Below are positions 3,833-25,161 of a stretch of DNA of 25,161 nt, piece after piece (position 1 is the first letter of the stretch; each line of letters begins with the position of its first letter). Source of the stretch: a virus; the UHGV virus genome UHGV-1407879; one strand, given 5' to 3'. Made by a program: the position numbers and the translations under genes. The notes under the pieces are model-generated. The model was not told where the DNA came from. It did not search any database and saw nothing but the letters and a program-made list of their open reading frames with translations.

Positions 3833-4266
3833 GCAGAGTCACCGCGATTATCTCCGCTCTGGTTATCTGCATCATCGTCTGCCTGTCATGGGCTGTTAAT
3901 CACTACCGTGATAACGCCATCGCCTATAAAGAGCAGCGCGACAAAGCCGCATCTATCATCTCTGATATGCAGAAGCGTCAACGTGATGTAGCTGAACTCG
4001 ATGCCAGATACACAAAGGAGCTTGCTGATGCTAACGCGACTATCGAAAGTCTCCGTGCTGATGTTTCTGCTGGGCGTAAGCGCCTGCAGGTCGCCGCCAC
4101 CTGTGCAAAGTCAACGACCGGAGCCAGCGGCATGGGCGATGGAGAAAGCCCAAGACTTACAGCAGATGCTGAACTCAATTATTACCGTCTCCGAAGTGGA
4201 ATCGACAGGATAACCGCGCAGGTTAACTACCTGCAGGAATACATCAGGACGCAATGCCTTCGATGA
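3829..4266 (+). CDS. Rz: Spanin inner-membrane subunit Rz (i-spanin)
   Basis: 145 aa; N-terminal TM helix ([20 protein letters not shown]), coiled-coil periplasmic domain, ATGA overlap with R; diverged from lambda Rz but same architecture. Confidence 0.85.
4028..4213 (+). CDS. Rz1: Spanin outer-membrane lipoprotein Rz1 (o-spanin), embedded in +1 frame of Rz
   Basis: Embedded ORF with signal peptide and lipobox (LLGVSAC), proline-rich mature part ([13 protein letters not shown]). Start chosen at ATG 4028; the track ORF begins at 4001. Confidence 0.7.
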
Positions 4267-5130: not shown

Positions 5131-5373
5131 ATGGCAGAGATTATTCCCATGACTGAAGAACAGAAATTCCAGTTAGAGATTTACAAGCTGGTCATGAACC
5201 AGAACGCAGCTGCAGAGGAAGCATTTCAGTTCATTGGCACTGACGAACTGAAGCTTGAGCTATTCAAAATTCACTTCCAGTCAGGCGGCGCTAATTCGGA
5301 TATCACGACCCGCACTATCGAAGCGGTGCGTAAATCGAAGGAAGCGTTAGACCTGTTCACCACCGGAGCATAA
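5131..5373 (+). CDS. Hypothetical small acidic protein (80 aa)
   Basis: ORF ending 2 nt before the TerS start (TAA 5371-5373, ATG 5376), so probably co-translated with the packaging operon. Confidence 0.45.
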   Translation: MAEIIPMTEEQKFQLEIYKLVMNQNAAAEEAFQFIGTDELKLELFKIHFQSGGANSDITTRTIEAVRKSKEALDLFTTGA

Positions 5374-15705: not shown

Positions 15706-17037
15706 ATGGCTACGTGGCAACAGGGTATTAATTCTGGTGGTTTTCTGGCTGGCATTGGTGCGCAAAACGAGAATGCGCCAAAGGCAAGCGACATTAACGC
15801 AACGCTTGGTCTGATCCGCGAAAACAATGAACTGGCTCGCTCAGGTGCAAATAACGTTGGTCTGACCGCGTTACGTGGTCTGGCTGGAGTTGCTGATATT
15901 TATAAGCAGGAACAGCAACAGAAAGCGATTAGTGCGTTCAATAAGGTTCACGCTGATGCATGGGCTTCTGGTGATCCATCGGGACTATTTAAGTTTGCCC
16001 AGGAAAATCCAGCGTTTGTTGCACAGGCACAACAGGCGTTTTCCGGTCTTAATGAGCAGCAACGCAACGATATGGGCGATTTAGCCATGAGGGCTAACGT
16101 CGCTCTTTCTCAGGGACCGGAAGCCTACAGTAAATTCATTACTGACAACAAGGACAGGTTAAATCGCGTGGGTGCGAATGCTGACTGGATGATTCAGACA
16201 GGTATCCAGAATCCAGAGCAGCTATCACACATGCTGACTACTATGACGCTAGGGGCTGTTGGTCCGGATAAAATGCTGGATTATCAGGATAAGATGGTTG
16301 GTCGCCAACTAGAGAAAGGGCGATTGGATGAAAGCATCCGTCAGGCTGATATGGAGAATGCGAGAGGATGGGCAAATATCCAGAACGCTCAACTAGACAG
16401 GGCTCAGCGGGCACAAATGCATAATGATAACGTAGCCCTGAAGTTGCAGGAATTAGGGATGAAACAACAGGAAAGCGGAAAGATTGACCCAAAACTTGTT
16501 CGAGATCTGAATAGTGATATTAATGGGTTCTCAAAGAATTATTCTGCAATGCGCAGTGCTTCTGACAACCTACAAGCCCTTGGGAAGCGCAACACTCCAG
16601 CAGCGCAGTTGGGAATGATTTTCAACTATATGAAATCGCTGGATCCGCAATCTGTGGTACGCGAAGGTGAGCAAGTGCAGGTAAAACGCACTGATGGAAT
16701 ATTCGGCACACTTGGTAACTATGTTAGCCAATTATCTAACGGCAAGATGCTGAATAATGAGCAAGTCCAGGACTTAATCAATACCTCAAAACTGATGGCA
16801 AATACTGAAGGCGAAAAGTTTAACCAGCAAATGGATGATTATCTTTCAACTTATGGAGATTCTCTCCCCAGCGGACTAACTAAGCAATTGCAATCCAGAA
16901 AAGCCAAGCTGTATGAAGATATTCAGCAGCCTGCGCAACAACAGAGCAATAACCAACAACCGACAAATACCCAACAGCAGCAGAGTCAATCCGGATCATA
17001 TACCTCAAAATCAGGCATTCAATTTACGGTGGAATGA
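15706..17037 (+). CDS. Ejection protein (P22 gp20-like)
   Basis: 443 aa; synteny between gp7 and gp16; Q-rich C-terminus. Confidence 0.8.
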
Positions 17038-19160
17038 TGAAAGTAACTGCAAACGGAAAGACATTTACCTTCCCTGATGGTACGAGCACGGAAGATATTG
17101 GCACCGCCATTGATGAGTATTTTACTGGTCAGGCTGTTCAGCAACAAACAGTTAATCAGGCCAATAATGAACCAGCACGTGAAGAACCATCATTGATGCA
17201 ACAAGCTGGCGATTGGCTCACTGGTGGTCAAAGTGCAGGGCAAATTGCAGAACAGGCTGGTCGTGGTCTGGTAAACATACCATTTGATGTATTGCAGGGT
17301 GGCGCAAGTCTGATTAATGCAATCAGCCAGGGGCTTGGTGGGCCAAAAGTATTGGATGATGTTTATCGTCCAGTCGATCGACCGACAGACCCTTACGCGC
17401 AAGCCGGTGAAACAATTGGTGGGGATCTCCTGCCAATTGGCACAGCGGCAAAAGCTGCTGGAGCGCCAGCAAAGCTCGCTGGAGATATCGGTTCCGCAGG
17501 AAACATGATTGCAGGTTCTCTTGCTGATGCTGCAAATCAGGAGGGCGATTTTGCACAAAATGCTGCCATTAACGGTGGTATCAATATTGGTGCTCAAGGC
17601 GTTCTTTCAGGTGTCGGGCGCGTTATTGCGCCAAGGGTTTCACAGGCTCTTGGTGGTGCAGCACTGAATTCTGCTAATGATGTTTCTAGGATGGCAAAGT
17701 CAGGTGCTGGGCGTCAGTCAATTGCCAGTCAGGCCGCTAATGTGTCCGAAGATGTAGCAAAAGCGGCTGAGTCTGCTGGAATTGATATAAACGCATTAAC
17801 ACCAGGAATGCGATCTGGAAGTCGTGGAATTGCACAAGCCGAAGGCGCATTGGCATCAACACCTGGAATTGTTCAGGACGCCCATCAGGCAGCATTTAAC
17901 GAAATATCATCAAAGTTAAGTCGAAACCTTGATGAATTTGGGGCCACATCTGGAACGGCATCAGAAAAAAGTGCGGCTATAAAACAAAGGATTCTTCAAA
18001 ATCTTGATCAGATGAAGGATGCCGAGCGCGCGGCATGGGATGACGTGCGGTCAACAATGCCAAATCAAAAAGCAAGAATGCTAAATGGTAATGCCGTTAT
18101 TCAGGCAGAGCGATCTGCTGGCATACCGCTTACTCCTGAAATGAAACAGTTTGTTCAGGCAAACAATCAAGGTGGAGTAACATTTGATGGCATGAAAGCA
18201 TGGAGAGCGAAATTTGCTGATGCGGAGCAAAAATATAAGCGTAGCGGAGAGGCAAATGCGGCAAGGAGAGCAGGGGAAATACGCCGGGCAATTACTGATG
18301 ATATGCGCACAATGGCGGAAAACGGCGGATTTCTTGATGACTGGCAGAAAGCTAATGATCTGTCTAAAGCGAGGTTATCAGCACAAGAGAGTGCAGAGTC
18401 TGTTTTCGGGCGTGATTTGGCAACAGATGCACTGATTACGAATGGAGTAAAATCCCTTCAATCATCGTCAGCTAAAGGTCTTAATGGTCCTGCTGGATTC
18501 CATTCTATGATCCGCGCGCTGCCAGAATCAGAGCGTGTTCCTGCTATATCATCAATGTTGCAAGATGCTATCTCGCATGGTGTACGTGGTGGCAAAGCTG
18601 ATGCAGCAGGAATTAACCATATCGCAGAGATACTGACTCCACAAAATGTAAAAGCCATTAGCCGATATTCCTCAGAGCTTGGAAGAATTGCTGATGCATA
18701 TGGCACTCTTGCAAGAGCAGCAGTGAAACCTCAGCAGTATATTGAAAGAACAGGTAGAACTGCCAATGTACTACGCGATCTGGATGCTGGTTTATCCAAC
18801 GTCACATCAACAGTGTTAAATGCAATTGCCAATTCAACATCAGGTGCCATTGTTGGTGGCGCTGGAGGAGGCATTGCAGGCGCTGCCGCAGGTGCTTTAG
18901 TTGGCGCTGGGTTAAAAGGCGCTGTATCTAAAATTGCCACCACACGTAGTGGTCGGTATGCGATAGAGAAAGCGGTTCAGGAAGCAACTAAAGCAGTAAG
19001 AGCAGGCGGAAGCAAAGAAGCATTAGCGGCGGCGGAACGCAGATTTATGGCAAATAAGGCCGCCGTAAAAGCAATACGCGAGGCACTAGGAAACGAAGAG
19101 TTCCAGCGTTTAGCAAGGGCTGGAATTGTGGCATCGCTAAGCGGAATGGCACAGGAGTAA
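17034..19160 (+). CDS. Ejection protein (P22 gp16-like), extended
   Basis: 708 aa; last gene of the ejection-protein trio; Gly/Ala-rich segments ([21 protein letters not shown]); ATGA overlap with gp20. Confidence 0.8.
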
Positions 19161-19490
19161 TTAGTCATCCATGGATGGATTGAGCTTATCTCGTGTTGAT
19201 GTGGCAATTTTACCAACATTTTTCAACCAAGATTTTAAGAAGGATATGTCGTCCTTAATATCATGAATATCCTCATTCTTTATACGATCAACCTTATCCT
19301 CTAGGCTCTCTATAGAACGCTCAATGCTAGACAGAGAGATTTTTAAGTCTCCTTGCTCACGTTCCAGTGAGGATTTGAGAGCACAATATTCGTTTTCTAG
19401 AATTCCTATTTTTTTTGTTAGAGAGTGCATTCGATACTCATACACCAAACTAGAAACGACTAATGCAGCCAACAGAAACCATTCAAGCAC
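19161..19490 (-). CDS. Small membrane-anchored coiled-coil protein (109 aa), unknown function
   Basis: GTG start preceded by AAGGAGG with about 5-nt spacing; N-terminal TM helix (LEWFLLAALVVSSLVY) then heptad-rich acidic domain; AT-rich codon usage by eye. Confidence 0.6.
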   Translation of the reverse strand: MLEWFLLAALVVSSLVYEYRMHSLTKKIGILENEYCALKSSLEREQGDLKISLSSIERSIESLEDKVDRIKNEDIHDIKDDISFLKSWLKNVGKIATSTRDKLNPSMDD

Positions 19491-19572
19491 ACCAACCTCC
19501 TTAGTTTTGTGCAGGATACCATGATGTCAGTGCAAGGGGGAGAAAGTCTCCTCATTATCTGATTTGCAATTT

Positions 19573-19608
19573 ACGTGCATATTTAAATATTGCACGTTAC
19601 AACGTGCA
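19573..19608. promoter_or_regulatory. Operator-like triple half-site ACGTGCA / TGCACGT / ACGTGCA in divergent promoter region
   Basis: ACGTGCA (19573-19579), 11-bp AT spacer TATTTAAATAT, TGCACGT (19591-19597), TACA, ACGTGCA (19602-19608); a TTGCAA -35-like hexamer lies at 19564-19569. Confidence 0.5.
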
Positions 19609-19643
19609 TGTGTATGATTGACTTATCAATCACAACACGAGAT

Positions 19644-20657
19644 ATGCTCATGAAAAATGATGATGTTAGTGGGAAGGCCAAAGGCGGTAAGGCACGCGCG
19701 GCAAAAATGACAGCAGAGCAAAGAAAAGAATCCTCAAGAAAGGCTGTTGCCGCAAAAAAAGAAAAAGCTTTATTGCCCGTATCTGCGAATGAGGGAAAGT
19801 TAAAGATCGGTGATGCGGAATTAGATGTCGCGGTTCTCGAAAATGGACGGCGTATCATATCACAAGCTTCTGTTTTTAAAGCATTTGGCCGACCACAAAG
19901 AGGGGGTAGAGCACCTCAAGAAGAGGGTGTGATCAATATGCCCGCTTTTATGGATGCTGCAAACCTTAAAAAATATATAAATCAAGATGTTATGGATGTG
20001 ATCAATAAGGTCAAATACAAGACGATTACTGGCTCCGTCCAGGAAGGTTATGACGCATCCATAATACCTCTTGTCTGCGATGTTTATTTAAAGGCAAGAG
20101 AGGCAGGCGCTATCACCAGGCCAAACCAGTTAGAGACAGCCAAGAAAGCTGAAATTCTGGTGCGCTCATTAGCTAAAGTCGGAATAATAGCGCTTGTTGA
20201 TGAAGCGACGGGGTACCAGCGAGATAGAGAAAAAGATGCACTCGCCAAAATACTCGAGGCCTTTGTCGCAAAGGAAATTCAACCTTATATTACAACATTT
20301 CCTGCTGATTATTATGAAGAGCTTTTCAGGTTAAGGGGCTTAGAATCCCCGCCGGAAAATCCCCGCTTCCGGCCTCAGTATTTTGGCGTTTTGACAAATG
20401 ATATCGTCTACAAGAGATTGGCACCAAACATCCTTGAGGAGCTTAAAAAGCAGAACGTAAAGGCCTCAAAAGGTACAAAGTTGTTTCAGGGGCTGACGCC
20501 AAATATTGGATATCAAAAATTAAGAGAGCATCTGTCATCAACCGTTACGATTATGAAGCTATCTAACGATTATTCAGATTTTATTGCAAAAATGAATCGC
20601 CTGCATCCAAGGTTTGAGGATGTGAAAACAGACGAACTGGATGATTCAGACAAGTAA
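19644..20657 (+). CDS. Hypothetical protein with lysine-rich basic N-terminus (338 aa from ATG 19644; ORF open from 19590)
   Basis: Long ORF with own promoter/operator upstream and terminator downstream. The track start at 19590 is a TTG inside the operator; ATGs at 19608, 19614, 19644 and 19650 are alternative starts. Basic low-complexity N-terminal tail (SGKAKGGKARAAKMTAEQRKESSRKAVAAKKEK) then globular domain. Confidence 0.6.
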   Translation: MLMKNDDVSGKAKGGKARAAKMTAEQRKESSRKAVAAKKEKALLPVSANEGKLKIGDAELDVAVLENGRRIISQASVFKAFGRPQRGGRAPQEEGVINMPAFMDAANLKKYINQDVMDVINKVKYKTITGSVQEGYDASIIPLVCDVYLKAREAGAITRPNQLETAKKAEILVRSLAKVGIIALVDEATGYQRDREKDALAKILEAFVAKEIQPYITTFPADYYEELFRLRGLESPPENPRFRPQYFGVLTNDIVYKRLAPNILEELKKQNVKASKGTKLFQGLTPNIGYQKLREHLSSTVTIMKLSNDYSDFIAKMNRLHPRFEDVKTDELDDSDK

Positions 20658-20661
20658 CAGT

Positions 20662-20686
20662 AACCCACCTTCAGGTGGGTTTTTTG
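20662..20686. terminator. Bidirectional rho-independent terminator between convergent genes
   Basis: ACCCACC-TTCA-GGTGGGT hairpin followed by TTTTT on + strand; A-run on the other side; overlaps the last codons of mnt. Confidence 0.65.
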
Positions 20687-20922
20687 TACAAATCCTTCAG
20701 CGTATCAAACACCATCTTCTTAACAAGCTCTGACTGCTCATCAGCGAGTCGTTCTGCATCGTCGCGATAGCCTGCAATCGGTGATGGTTTTGATAGCGCA
20801 TCCTGAACGATTTGTAATAACTCTGAGTTCATTGACCTTCCGTTAGCCTCTGCTCTTAATTTCAATTTTTCTCTTACTTCCAAAGGCATACGGAAGTTAA
20901 AGTGCGGATCGTCTCTAGCCAT
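20671..20922 (-). CDS. mnt: Mnt repressor (ribbon-helix-helix)
   Basis: 83 aa, near-identical to P22 Mnt from memory (ARDDPHFNFRMP.EVREKLK.RAEANGRSMNSELLQIVQDALSKPSP...). Confidence 0.9.
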   Translation of the reverse strand: MARDDPHFNFRMPLEVREKLKLRAEANGRSMNSELLQIVQDALSKPSPIAGYRDDAERLADEQSELVKKMVFDTLKDLYKKPT

Positions 20923-20945: not shown

Positions 20946-21209
20946 CTAACTTTCGTCTTTATTGTTGCTATACATGCATTTCAACTTCTCAACATCATGT
21001 TCAAGATCTATCAATCGTGATGCTATAGTTGCAAGGTCTAGTGCTTGAATGTGTTTATTTTTTTCGGTCCATGCTTCAAGTGCCGCGACCATCTCAGCAT
21101 TTAATGAACGAGAATTAGCCTCAGCCAGTTCAATAAGACGTTCCTTTATCTCTACAGGAAGCCTCAGATTCACTTGAGGGTTTTTGTACTTACGATCAGA
21201 CATTGGCAC
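20946..21209 (-). CDS. Second Mnt/Arc-family ribbon-helix-helix regulator (87 aa)
   Basis: N-terminal RHH signature (NLRLPVEIKERLIELAEANSRSLNAEMVAAL) plus C-terminal helical extension as in Mnt; lies between mnt and the operator region. Confidence 0.7.
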   Translation of the reverse strand: MPMSDRKYKNPQVNLRLPVEIKERLIELAEANSRSLNAEMVAALEAWTEKNKHIQALDLATIASRLIDLEHDVEKLKCMYSNNKDES

Positions 21210-21308: not shown

Positions 21309-21449
21309 ATGAAGGTAAAAACACTGCGTATGCCAGAGAAGTTAGAAAAAATCCTTGAAGAGAAAGCAAAGGAAGAGTGTCGCTCATTTAGTGCAGAAGT
21401 AATTAAACGGGTGATGGACAGCCTGAAGAGAGAGGGGATAACGGTATGA
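21309..21449 (+). CDS. arc: Arc-like ribbon-helix-helix repressor (46 aa)
   Basis: Not in the ORF track (under 60 aa). GGAGG 6 nt upstream of ATG 21309; translation MKVKTLRMPEKLEKILEEKAKEECRSFSAEVIKRVMDSLKREGITV aligns with the P22 Arc strand-helix-helix pattern (FNLRWPREVLDLVRKVAEENGRSVNSEIYQRVMESFKKEG). Confidence 0.7.
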   Translation: MKVKTLRMPEKLEKILEEKAKEECRSFSAEVIKRVMDSLKREGITV

Positions 21450-21649
21450 GTAAAGAATGTTGTTTCTGCGGCATTAGCGAATCAGACGCTGATCAAACAT
21501 ACATTTACTCTAAAGAAACAGGTCGGATGCTGTGTAGTGACTGCGTGTTGGACATCATAAGATACAAGCATCTTGGATGTTCTGCCAGCATTAGCAATAT
21601 AGGTGAAGTATATGAAGGGAAAGATATAACTGATAGAGCAGAAAGTTGA
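21446..21649 (+). CDS. Small Cys-rich protein (67 aa), putative zinc-ribbon
   Basis: ATGA overlap with the arc stop (translational coupling); cysteine pattern CCFC...CSDC...C. Confidence 0.5.
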   Translation: MSKECCFCGISESDADQTYIYSKETGRMLCSDCVLDIIRYKHLGCSASISNIGEVYEGKDITDRAES

Positions 21650-21712
21650 AGCCCCAACTGCGGTAACAGTCAGGGCTTCGGTATCGTAAAACCACGCATA
21701 GGAATTAACGAC

Positions 21713-22814: not shown

Positions 22815-24965
22815 ATGACAGACATTACAGCCAATGTGATCGTATCGATGCCTTCGCAACTCTTCACTATGGCGCGTTCTTTTAAAGCCGTAGCCAATGG
22901 CAAAATTTATATCGGTAAAATTGACACTGATCCTGTAAATACAGAAAACCAGATTCAGGTCTATGTGGAGAATGAAGACGGTTCTCACGTTCCTGTTTCG
23001 CAACCAATAATCATTAACGCTGCTGGATATCCGGTATATAACGGACAGATTGCCAAATTCGTTACCGTGCAAGGCCATTCTATGGCTGTTTATGATGCGT
23101 ATGGTGCGCAGCAGTTCTATTTTCCTAATGTGCTGAAGTATGACCCTGATCAACTACGGCAGCAATTAGAAGACCCGGATGGAGCTAAAAAATATCCTGA
23201 ATTGCAGATATCTCGGTGGAGGGACGATTGTGATGTAAGAGGGTGGGGGGCAAAAGGCGATGGTATAACAGATGATACATCTGCATTGATCTTGGCTGCA
23301 GAATATGCACGAGAATCATCCAAAACATTACGAGCGGAAGGTAATTTTATTATTACGGAGACATTAAATCTTCGTAATGTCAGCCTCGAAATGACCAATG
23401 CTGTTTTTACCATATCCCACTCAGGAATAGGGGTATTGCTTGGCGGGAATGCATCAAACCCTAACAACCCAAGACAAAACTTCGGAACGATTATCAGAAA
23501 TTCTGGTATTTCATCTGAAACGACACCGGATATTCGTATTATTGGGGCAAAAGGGCAGCATATAAACATTGAGCGTTGCGACTACTTACAGTTATATGCA
23601 AATTATAATGCTTCGGTGGCATCGACGGATTATTCAATAGCATACTCAACCTTTAACCTGAAAAAGGTCGATACAATTCATTTTCTTGGAGTTGAGAACG
23701 GATGGATAAATGAAAACTATTTTTATCTGAATCGTACGAATAATATCATTTTCGCTGATAATCCATATCATCATAACCACAATAAGTTTTATGGTGGAAC
23801 TATGGAGGGGGCAGGTAAAATTGATATTCAAAGAGGTGATAACAATTACTTCTACGGGTTTCGTTTTGAACGATATCCATCATCCCCAACTAACCAACAG
23901 TTGATAATTAACTTTGGTGAATATACGTGGAATAACTCAATTGAGGCTTCATGGTTAAGTTCTCCTTACTATACAAATGAACCATACAATCCATCACCTT
24001 ACACTTATGTAGAGGTAACTGATAATGGCAAGGGGAATGCAGTATTTCATGTTCAGGAAAATATATCCGATGAAGTAACATTGTTTTCTTTAAATGCTAA
24101 CACCCCATTTATATCCAGTGCCAACAATGGAGAAGTTGGTGCATTAGCATATCAAACAGATGTAGATGGTTTATATAATATCCGTCACCTAGTTTCTTCT
24201 AAGTTTGCTTTTATGCGGAATTTTGGGTTGTTATGGGAATCTGGAGATGTACCAGTAAGAAATGGTGATATGTTTACATTCTCAGCAGATACGGCATCGT
24301 TTCGCATTTACCTGTATGCATTAGATGGAGATGGGAATGTCATAACTTCACAAACAGAAGCAATAACTTCTTCTATGCAATGGGATTCATCTAACCATAG
24401 ATATGCTACTGTTGCTAACATTTCTTCCATTAAGATCAGGATTAATAATGAAGGGGTTCCAGTTAGTGCAATTCGTTTAGCTGTGTATTCTGGTGGTAAT
24501 GTAGCGAATACTGCATTTTCATGGCTATGCTTAACTGGTAGATATTACAAAAATAGCACATCCTTGCCAAGGAAAAGCAAAGATAACTTCACCTTAAAAC
24601 AAGGAAAAGCAATTACTTATTATAGTGATACTGATATTAGTATGGCTAACATTGGTTCAGGAATTACCTGTTATAAAACCGATTTATCTGAAATCAAAAT
24701 TAATCTTGTAAGGGGCAGGTATGTAGTGAAATCAATTTCAGGCAGTGAAATATATGTATACCAAGGAACAGTCACTTATTACCCTCCATTCAGTGATGTC
24801 AAATTGGTATATACGGATGGGGTTGAAAATAAATTATTAGATGTGCAAAACATCTCTTCAGGAAAGATTACTCTTGCAGATACAGTACCATCAGCTATAT
24901 CTGCAGGTGATTTTGTAGATGTTATTGTTACGAAGACGAAGTCTATTTTATCCAGTGCGCCGTAA
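22815..24965 (+). CDS. Tailspike protein: P22 gp9-like head-binding N-domain fused to a divergent receptor-binding domain
   Basis: 716 aa; N-terminal ~115 aa closely matches P22 tailspike from memory ([11 protein letters not shown]...[21 protein letters not shown]...VLKYDPDQ). The remainder is unrelated, visibly AT-rich, with a pectate-lyase-fold-like motif ([14 protein letters not shown]). Confidence 0.9.
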
Positions 24966-25161
24966 AACCCCGTTCTGCATGGTATGGAGGATGTCAGCAC
25001 GTGCGTGGGATATGGCAAGCCTGATGGATTTTTCTATGCCGTTGGTGGTGTGCCCGCTGATCTGGCTGTTGAGCCGTTAAATATAAAAAGCCGCAGTAAC
25101 TTGTCATGATAGGATACTGCGGCTGGCTGGTTAACTTTCGATAGTGCGAGTATTGAATGAT

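Follow-up and report, generated by a model that had tools for sequence, protein, structure and literature searches.

This study concerns the variable slot between the gene 16 homologue and mnt in UHGV virus genome UHGV-1407879, of which the whole stretch of 25,161 nucleotides (nt) was analysed (hereafter the window). The slot, a variant of the already described 'ant moron' of P22-like phages, holds two genes, hkcB on one strand and a gene of the P63C family on the other. Our main new result concerns the latter family: across many phyla P63C genes carry, shortly before the start codon, a recurrent array of near-palindromic boxes, and they recur in slots of temperate phages that are expressed in the lysogen, a combination that we did not find in the searchable literature. 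Within the window, comparison with related phages indicates that hkcB and the P63C gene are two unrelated accessory genes brought side by side by recombination, and that the pair is a chance neighbourhood. We propose that they act independently, HkcB as a block on DNA injection resembling the superinfection-exclusion protein SieA of P22, and the P63C protein as an autoregulated DNA-binding accessory protein in conflicts between phages; we consider this explanation about evenly balanced between right and wrong. A sequence-only reading made earlier from the letters of this DNA had instead described a single divergent two-gene moron, with a shared operator region and a closing terminator, and had suggested a role in exclusion or defence. 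The window locus itself is mostly housekeeping, and the interest lies in the P63C family.

A box array in the promoter of P63C genes

Three heptameric boxes, the middle one inverted, precede the P63C gene of the window (Table 1), and the same three boxes, at the same position and spacing, lie ahead of orthologues down to 57% protein identity, in wholly different genomic contexts. Among 141 non-redundant upstream regions drawn from many phyla, two to four near-palindromic boxes are kept in the 90 nt before the start codon, the layout recurring with a clade-specific sequence that is most often ATGCAAGCAT/ATGCTTGCAT. The exact order of a heptamer X, its reverse complement and X again is present in 46 of these regions against 0.25 expected, and a degenerate box, TGCA[AC]G[CT], reaches 13.3 per kilobase (kb) in the 125 nt upstream of the gene, with its peak at −90 to −30, compared with 0.36 per kb within the gene and 0.46 per kb over the remaining parts of the loci. 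Clusters of at least three boxes stand ahead of a P63C gene 42 times and elsewhere, in 1.32 Mb of flanking DNA, three times (L058 7357–7365, L106 1709–1768 and L095 664–721); the 25-kb window has a single cluster.

The central box appears to supply the −35 hexamer of a promoter of sigma-70 type, since the pattern TTGCAN-N16-18-TAnnnT, with its first hexamer in that box, occurs in 50 of the 141 regions against 1.2 ± 1.0 in shuffles. A generic consensus promoter scan of the region returned sites no more numerous than in shuffled sequence. In the enterobacterial clade a further motif, TCACAACACGAG, follows in the leader just ahead of the start codon and is present in the window, in the Shiga-toxin (Stx) phage 933W and at loci L016, L018, L020, L021, L043, L045, L051 and L151. 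At non-enteric loci (e.g., L150, L153, L158, L161 and L170) a fourth box often lies over the ribosome-binding site and start codon, at −10 to +3 (e.g., GGATGCTTGCATG); as this box is complementary to the preceding one, translational occlusion by an RNA hairpin, besides DNA binding, is possible. We dropped the idea that the three boxes form an RNA switch, because folding of the leader is not significant (z = −1.36) and the transcription start inferred for the enteric clade lies downstream of the boxes; a scan of the leader against Rfam returned no family. No LexA-type site (CTGT-N8-ACAG) was seen by eye in 19480–19650.

The box counts bear on one alternative, namely that the P63C protein is a lysogenic-conversion transcription factor reprogramming host genes, for example those of virulence or stress. 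A putative DNA-binding architecture with a promoter of its own would suit such a regulator, as would the presence of P63C genes in chromosomal islands outside recognisable prophages and their high conservation across hosts. The near-confinement of box clusters to the upstream side of the gene, 42 against three, with one in the window, leaves no regulon in the sampled DNA (whole host genomes were not scanned), and hosts as unlike as Streptococcus, Gordonia and Planctomycetota make a shared regulon improbable; we therefore give this alternative little credence.

hkcB and the P63C cassette as separate mosaic blocks

The window resembles different phages on the two sides of a junction between its two slot genes. 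Homology to coliphage HK620 covers 19100–19524, from the end of gene 16 through hkcB into the beginning of hkcC, and homology to 933W covers approximately 19501–20706 at 99.3% DNA identity, promoter boxes and terminator included. The left junction of the P63C cassette thus falls at approximately 19501–19525, at the right end of the segment CCAACCTCCTTAGTTTTGTGCAGGATACCATGA, which is common to P22, HK620 and the window; directly after the hkcC ATG within it, the window and 933W both switch to the P63C cassette. As judged from this alignment, the cassette has taken the place of hkcC/orf59a in a P22-like phage. The 13-codon open reading frame (ORF) MMSVQGGESLLII*, in which the hkcC start codon is joined to the left end of the cassette, is also conserved in 933W, and is probably a by-product of the junction.

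At the right end, the hairpin AACCCACCTTCAGGTGGGTT with its T-run acts as a terminator for the plus-strand P63C gene. The sequence-only reading was right that a terminator closes the slot, but it is not the module's own: the hairpin is native to the mnt 3' end and is found at the end of mnt in P22 too. The 933W copy of the cassette (L002, approximately 4000–4025 and 5165–5200) retains on its left flank the ribosome-binding site and ATG of hkcC, and on its right flank the hairpin with approximately 25 nt of mnt coding sequence beyond, altogether approximately 36 nt (approximately 12 codons) of the mnt 3' end. In 933W the cassette lies in the nin region, with a DNA methyltransferase gene on one side, roi on the other and no hkcB. 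Because remnants of hkcC and mnt flank it there, we conclude that Stx phages received the cassette from a P22-like phage, and that the Stx copy is the derived one. Its product, L0095 (WP_000335901.1, 'P63C domain-containing protein'), is 99% identical to the window protein, which is itself a full-length member of the family; the two differ in place, the nin region of Stx phages as opposed to the ant moron. The cassette therefore moves as a unit between unrelated genomic contexts, and other Escherichia coli prophages carry it with unrelated left neighbours. With promoter, gene and terminator it appears, from these comparisons, to be an insulated single-gene cassette; at L016 and L020 a terminator hairpin also stands immediately upstream of box 1.

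These observations bear on the earlier model of one divergent, co-regulated two-gene defence module. Such a module is suggested by the adjacency of the two divergent genes across a 159-bp spacer with operator-like repeats, by a weak minus-strand promoter-like site seen by eye (−10 GATAAT, the complement of 19551–19556, with a −35-like hexamer by box 1; below the scan threshold), and by two different prophages in which a small membrane-anchored coiled-coil protein lies left of the cassette. The mosaic boundary nevertheless falls between the two genes. Among 5426 complete E. coli genomes in RefSeq, 363 contain at least part of the region, and in just four are hkcB and the cassette contiguous. 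Each is also found without the other: the cassette, complete with its boxes, in 933W and many further contexts that lack hkcB, and hkcB in HK620, epsilon34, CUS-3, L186 and L187 (Klebsiella and Salmonella prophages among them). The P63C family has no conserved neighbour. Since 933W has the boxes and lacks hkcB, the operator-like repeats are part of the P63C cassette only and not, as had been supposed, of a region shared by both genes. The distributions largely refute the two-gene module, and we now regard it as highly improbable.

That the slot contents are horizontally acquired accessory cargo at a variable hot spot, the sieA-equivalent slot, is in turn supported. Gene content between gene 16 and mnt differs among P22, HK620, epsilon34 and several E. 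coli prophages, which is the presence-or-absence variation characteristic of a moron; of the other hallmarks, the terminator (hairpin and T-run) is clear, and the promoter is deduced from the family-wide TTGCAN-N17-TAnnnT pattern. Neither gene is core: among 50,697 phage records, relatives of the P63C gene are found in 62 and those of hkcB in 8. The low guanine-plus-cytosine (GC) content offered earlier as a mark of acquisition is real for hkcB (37%) and the P63C gene (43%) compared with the structural genes (49%), but it is not specific, since immI (42%) and the tailspike gene (38%) are equally low, and low GC is thus a mark of the whole right end of the window, not of this pair. The lowest GC in the window, 35–37%, is in the C-terminal, receptor-binding part of the tailspike gene (23400–25000), which is consistent with a separately acquired specificity domain.

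The P63C protein and its relatives

The sequence-only reading gave the plus-strand protein as 355 aa. The gene and its end stand, but the length most likely does not. There are three candidate starts, TTG 19590 (the maximal ORF, 355 aa), ATG 19608 (the RefSeq choice, 349 aa) and ATG 19650 (335 aa). Homologue N-termini, the PHROG alignment and the conserved promoter, whose −10 hexamer lies at 19613–19618, all point to ATG 19650 as the most likely true start. The same reading had noted a faint resemblance to the P63C domain, and this impression was correct: the protein matches Pfam PF10546 at E = 3.7e-22 (79.2 bits against a gathering cut-off of 26.1), as do all 31 of the 31 aligned homologues, and it matches phrog_2384 at E = 8.2e-146, residues 23–354 of the 355-aa ORF covering profile positions 2–337 of 338. 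The statement that neither protein could be placed in a family accordingly does not hold; HkcB (phrog_5962) and the P63C protein are members of existing families without an assigned role, both already catalogued.

The N-terminal tail is Lys/Ala/Arg-rich, as described from the letters, and is followed by a beta/alpha domain and a helical C-terminal half (Table 1) in an AlphaFold model of moderate confidence (predicted local distance difference test score, pLDDT, 72.7). Across 140 diverse sequences, D184, E185, T187, G188, Q190, R193, E203, E209, N250, Y254 and R256 of the core are at least 95% conserved. The family is large. More than 7,600 homologues were recovered by a word-indexed search, and an exhaustive profile search gave 4,947 clusters (at 50% identity) at E ≤ 0.001 and 1,193 at E ≤ 1e-30, nearly all of 300–370 aa; p63 of the Myxococcus phage Mx8, after which PF10546 is named, was recovered by the fold search. 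The window protein has 42–50% full-length identity to members from Actinomycetota, Chloroflexota, Planctomycetota, Acidobacteriota, Verrucomicrobiota and Chlamydiota.

Searches for an activity gave mostly negative results. Neither the single sequence nor the profile matched anything in the PDB, Foldseek of the model against the PDB returned nothing below E = 0.29, and the best hit in PADLOC-DB 2.0 (a type I specificity-subunit model, matched over a short stretch at E = 0.005) was judged not credible. Fusions in longer relatives, which comprise zinc ribbons of the insertion-sequence (IS) family IS1595 and one DUF1214 only, give no enzymatic clue. In two relatives (P0223 and P0250) the zinc ribbon of an IS1595-type transposase replaces the basic tail; together with weak matches to Bro-N, KilA and antirepressor proteins in the tail of a BFVD fold search, this hints at DNA binding.

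Such a protein could also belong to what is chiefly a selfish mobile gene, for instance a free-standing homing-endonuclease-like or addiction gene, for which the boxes would be recognition or regulatory sites and whose spread would account for the variety of insertion sites. It stands alone with promoter and terminator in modules as unrelated as the nin region, the ant moron and, antisense, a myovirus baseplate cluster; copies in different phage types are 99.3% identical; the invariant acidic core residues could be catalytic; and IS1 transposase genes are neighbours at 7 of 119 loci. Yet Pfam detects no nuclease domain (HNH, GIY-YIG, LAGLIDADG, PD-(D/E)xK) and no transposase domain in 31 members, and the PDB sequence and fold searches gave no nuclease match. 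In 933W the junctions are donor remnants, which argues for ordinary illegitimate or homologous recombination and not for precise homing, and the boxes lie in the gene's own promoter instead of at insertion borders. We find a selfish gene of this kind very doubtful.

Genomic contexts of the P63C family

All 62 phage records with a P63C gene are temperate phages or satellites, which is the signature of an accessory gene expressed in the lysogen. The gene lies directly downstream of a CI-type repressor gene, before N, at L016, L017 and L020 and in Salmonella phage ST104 (orf23); between the repressor and integrase genes in the Streptococcus pyogenes prophage Javan515; near the integrase gene in Gordonia phage Barco; and also in the 8.3-kb Streptococcus satellite phages MK448499 and MK448500. 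Neighbouring genes are on either strand at close to equal frequency (upstream 69/67, downstream 70/65), so that the family has no conserved partner gene.

These contexts raise the possibility that the P63C protein is an antirepressor or similar lysis-lysogeny regulator (Ant/Roi/Bro/KilA class), which, by binding DNA or a repressor, would tune the induction of the prophage that encodes it or of a neighbouring one and would not act on incoming phages. The gene has mnt-arc-ant as neighbours in the window and in Morganella (L018), and roi in 933W, and among the upstream neighbours at 119 loci Bro-N, Ant and AntA (12) come next after Peptidase_S24, the commonest (14). The C-terminal region also matches phrog_2899 'anti-repressor Ant' weakly (E = 0.006), in line with the BFVD matches given above, and the P63C domain was reportedly defined along with antirepressor-type modules by Iyer, Koonin and Aravind in 2002. 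Against these hints, profile-profile comparison (hhalign) of the N-terminal domain, the C-terminal domain and the basic tail with Bro-N (Roi) and P22_AR_N revealed no relation, and Pfam finds neither an antirepressor domain nor KilA-N in the window protein or the 31 aligned homologues. Antirepressors match specific repressors and diverge fast, whereas P63C proteins retain their 42–50% identity across phyla. Many copies sit in non-prophage islands, in Pseudomonas and of the Gilliamella type, beside genes for PAAR toxins, S-pyocins and restriction, and an inducer of lysis would hardly be expected to have a constitutive, self-limited promoter. On balance we think an antirepressor rather unlikely.

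HkcB

The minus-strand gene was read correctly from the letters as a 109-aa ORF with a strong Shine-Dalgarno (SD) sequence, AAGGAGG, 5 nt upstream of what proves to be a GTG start. Its product is 98% identical to HkcB of HK620, a full-length family match, and matches phrog_5962 at E = 5e-61 over profile positions 2–109 of 109. The earlier description, one transmembrane helix plus a coiled coil, is fair: there is a single N-terminal hydrophobic segment, residues 1–19 (maximum Kyte-Doolittle value 1.58 in a 19-residue window), and the AlphaFold model (pLDDT 87) is one unbroken helix over residues 2–103, amphipathic and acidic beyond the hydrophobic stretch. The family is very small: 5.8 billion proteins yielded 26 clusters, exclusively from enteric bacteria, and all eight phage records are P22-like. 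The best match of HkcB in PADLOC-DB 2.0, to DpdH at E = 4.5e-4 over a low-complexity helical region, was judged not credible.

The gene is co-directional with mnt. Homologues down to 50% identity abut gene 16 stop-to-stop, without an intergenic base (19160/19161 in the window, 5324/5325 in L186, 3279/3280 in L187). Carriers of hkcB have an HK620-type gp16, with 62–94% identity over the C-terminal 200 aa, and non-carriers have a P22-type gp16; in the window the gene 16 product is 74% identical to gp16 of HK620 and 35% to that of P22. In the E. coli EC11 prophage, which shares the P63C cassette and has a gene 16 of P22 type, the same slot next to both (L014 3680–4009) holds an unrelated 109-aa protein of HkcB-like architecture, an N-terminal hydrophobic segment and a long heptad-like helix; the two proteins may be an analogous class.

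A model and its weight

An exclusion or defence role, as the sequence-only reading had guessed, is still the most plausible by position, because hkcB lies exactly where sieA does and P63C genes occupy slots expressed in lysogeny, although neither protein has a credible PADLOC match. In the explanation we favour, HkcB would be a small membrane-anchored protein of a single, coiled-coil-type helix, most likely expressed from the prophage, which would most plausibly block DNA delivery by related phages in the manner of SieA, as its position and architecture, and only these, suggest. The P63C protein would bind its own boxes as a dimer and repress its own promoter, and such autorepression would hold the protein at a steady low level in the lysogen. 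The conserved C-terminal core, with the eleven residues listed above, would provide an effector activity that, in a BstA-like manner, targets an incoming or competing phage, either its DNA or a step of its replication or transcription.

Several points weigh against this explanation. The identity kept across phyla is unusually high for an arms-race protein and would suit equally well an enzyme, or a regulator whose target is conserved. The fold matches of the P63C protein are weak and its model is moderate, and no PADLOC model matches it although that library includes one for BstA. Binding of the boxes by the protein is deduced solely from their travelling together; divergence of the N-terminal domain does vary with box type, but the effect is small and confounded by phylogeny, and we did not use it as evidence. 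The 933W gene sits in the early-right (nin) operon and not in a lysogeny slot. As for HkcB, its one hydrophobic segment is of borderline hydropathy, it has neither the motif of SieA nor similarity to it, and its association with gp16 type, which fits a functional link, may be explained by physical linkage alone. No functional study or experiment on P63C, L0095, hkcB or ST104 orf23 was found in the searchable literature.

One may go further and suppose that the P63C cassette is an unrecognised single-gene prophage defence spread across many phyla, its boxes acting as operator and also marking the resident prophage as 'self', so that it is spared, and that HkcB adds to the injection blockers directed at gp16 a fourth class, of different structure. 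We consider this unlikely; if it were true, an autorepressed, BstA-like P63C protein would block replication or transcription of incoming phages. In any case, a family of thousands of members with operator-like boxes of its own, present in lysogeny slots and in no defence database, is a testable candidate for an anti-phage function, and since the cassette is carried by 933W and its relatives, its role could bear on prophage competition in pathogenic E. coli.

Surroundings of the slot

The immI region to the right of the slot is non-canonical. The arc/ant promoter region is separated from the P22-type mnt by a second Arc/Mnt-family gene, of 87 aa (20946–21209, minus strand). A search of the whole window for the P22 Mnt operator AGGTCCACGGTGGACCT, with up to three mismatches allowed, found no copy, so that the P22-type Mnt has no visible operator here and the P63C cassette is under no visible Mnt control; the repressor active at Pant may be the 87-aa protein. 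Between arc and ant, a 67-aa ORF (21446–21649, plus strand; phrog_7150) has a zinc-ribbon-like CxxC...CxxC spacing, and its start overlaps the arc stop codon. The antisense RNA sar (21644–21711, minus strand; RF00262, 85.7 bits), the only hit of an Rfam scan of immI, overlaps the 3' end of this ORF just upstream of ant.

Table 1. Features of the slot between gene 16 and mnt and of its borders, in window coordinates.
Feature	Position	Strand	Remarks
P63C-family gene, 335 aa from ATG 19650	19650–20657	+	Pfam P63C, phrog_2384, 933W identity
P63C protein, basic tail	residues 1–42		Lys/Ala/Arg-rich; 13 K+R in first 40 residues, isoelectric point 10.4
P63C protein, beta/alpha domain	residues 43–152		
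P63C protein, most conserved core in helical C-terminal half	residues 181–260, nt 20190–20429		
Pfam P63C match	residues 201–291, nt 20250–20522		
Box 1, ACGTGCA	19573–19579	+	
Box 2, TGCACGT (inverted copy)	19591–19597	+	Overlaps −35-like TTGCAC 19590–19595
Box 3, ACGTGCA	19602–19608	+	Within promoter spacer
−10-like hexamer TATGAT	19613–19618	+	17 nt after TTGCAC; inferred transcription start approximately 19625
Leader motif (A/T)TCACAACACGAG	19629–19641	+	Enterobacterial clade; just ahead of start codon
P22-type intergenic segment CCAACCTCCTTAGTTTTGTGCAGGATACCATGA	19491–19525	.	sieA/hkcB SD on minus strand, hkcC SD and ATG (19522–19524) on plus; from window/933W/HK620/P22 alignment
13-codon ORF MMSVQGGESLLII*	19522–19563	+	hkcC start codon joined to cassette left end; conserved in 933W; just upstream of boxes
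Terminator hairpin AACCCACCTTCAGGTGGGTT, then TTTTTT	20662–20687	+	Overlaps mnt stop codon; right cassette junction just before
hkcB, 109 aa, GTG start	19161–19490	-	N-terminal hydrophobic anchor and one long helix; zero gap to gene 16 stop codon
SD sequence of hkcB, AAGGAGG	19496–19502	-	5 nt ahead of GTG; read from sequence
Gene 16 homologue, 708-aa ejection/DNA-transfer protein, HK620 type	17034–19160	+	Left border of variable slot; phrog_770, E = 2.5e-231
mnt, 83 aa, P22 type	20671–20922	-	Right border of slot; Pfam Arc and Repressor_Mnt

Relation to known systems

The genome paper of epsilon34 described the ant moron, between genes 16 and 9, as the sole highly variable moron in the late operon, with ten types in sixteen genomes, and named hkcB within it, with homologues in HK620, CUS-3 and epsilon34 (Villafane et al. 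2008, PMC2629481). The window shares with it the position between genes 16 and 9 and mnt-arc-sar-ant, and differs in having the P63C cassette instead of hkcC/orf59a and the second Arc/Mnt-family gene.

HkcB is comparable to SieA of P22 in several respects. Like sieA, the gene follows gene 16 directly and is read from the opposite strand; HkcB, too, is a small, predicted membrane-associated product of a non-essential accessory gene of P22-like prophages; and its type is tied to that of gp16, the target of SieA. SieA itself has 162–164 aa, three or four transmembrane helices and the motif FxRYPxEAxxFNK, and acts on gp16/gp20 (Leavitt et al. 2024, PMC10883804). In contrast, HkcB has 109 aa, one hydrophobic segment and a long acidic helix; the motif was looked for in it and is absent, and BLASTP against P22 SieA gave no alignment at E ≤ 100 (SieA type A being the one compared directly). 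We therefore reject HkcB as a SieA homologue.

For the P63C protein, the nearest functional analogue would be BstA, an abortive-infection protein with a DNA element, aba, from Salmonella prophage BTP1 (Owen et al. 2021, PMC8585504). Like P63C proteins, BstA is the product of a single gene, has approximately 300 aa and consists of two domains, the N-terminal one of alpha/beta type and putatively DNA-binding; its gene has its own terminator and, in BTP1, occupies the slot between cI and N in which the P63C relatives of ST104, L016, L017 and L020 are found. In both, the 5' end of the gene carries a short DNA element that differs among variants: the cognate element of BstA, and the clade-specific boxes of P63C genes. 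The differences are equally plain. aba consists of terminal direct CCCGCC repeats spanning the start codon, whereas P63C boxes are near-palindromes in the promoter, and the P63C gene of the window lies in the ant moron and not beside cI. The proteins are not homologous, as hhalign gives a probability of 0.65%, the PADLOC model that hits BstA at 1.9e-124 does not hit the P63C protein at E ≤ 1, and Pfam detects no KilA-N domain in the latter; we have accordingly rejected homology.

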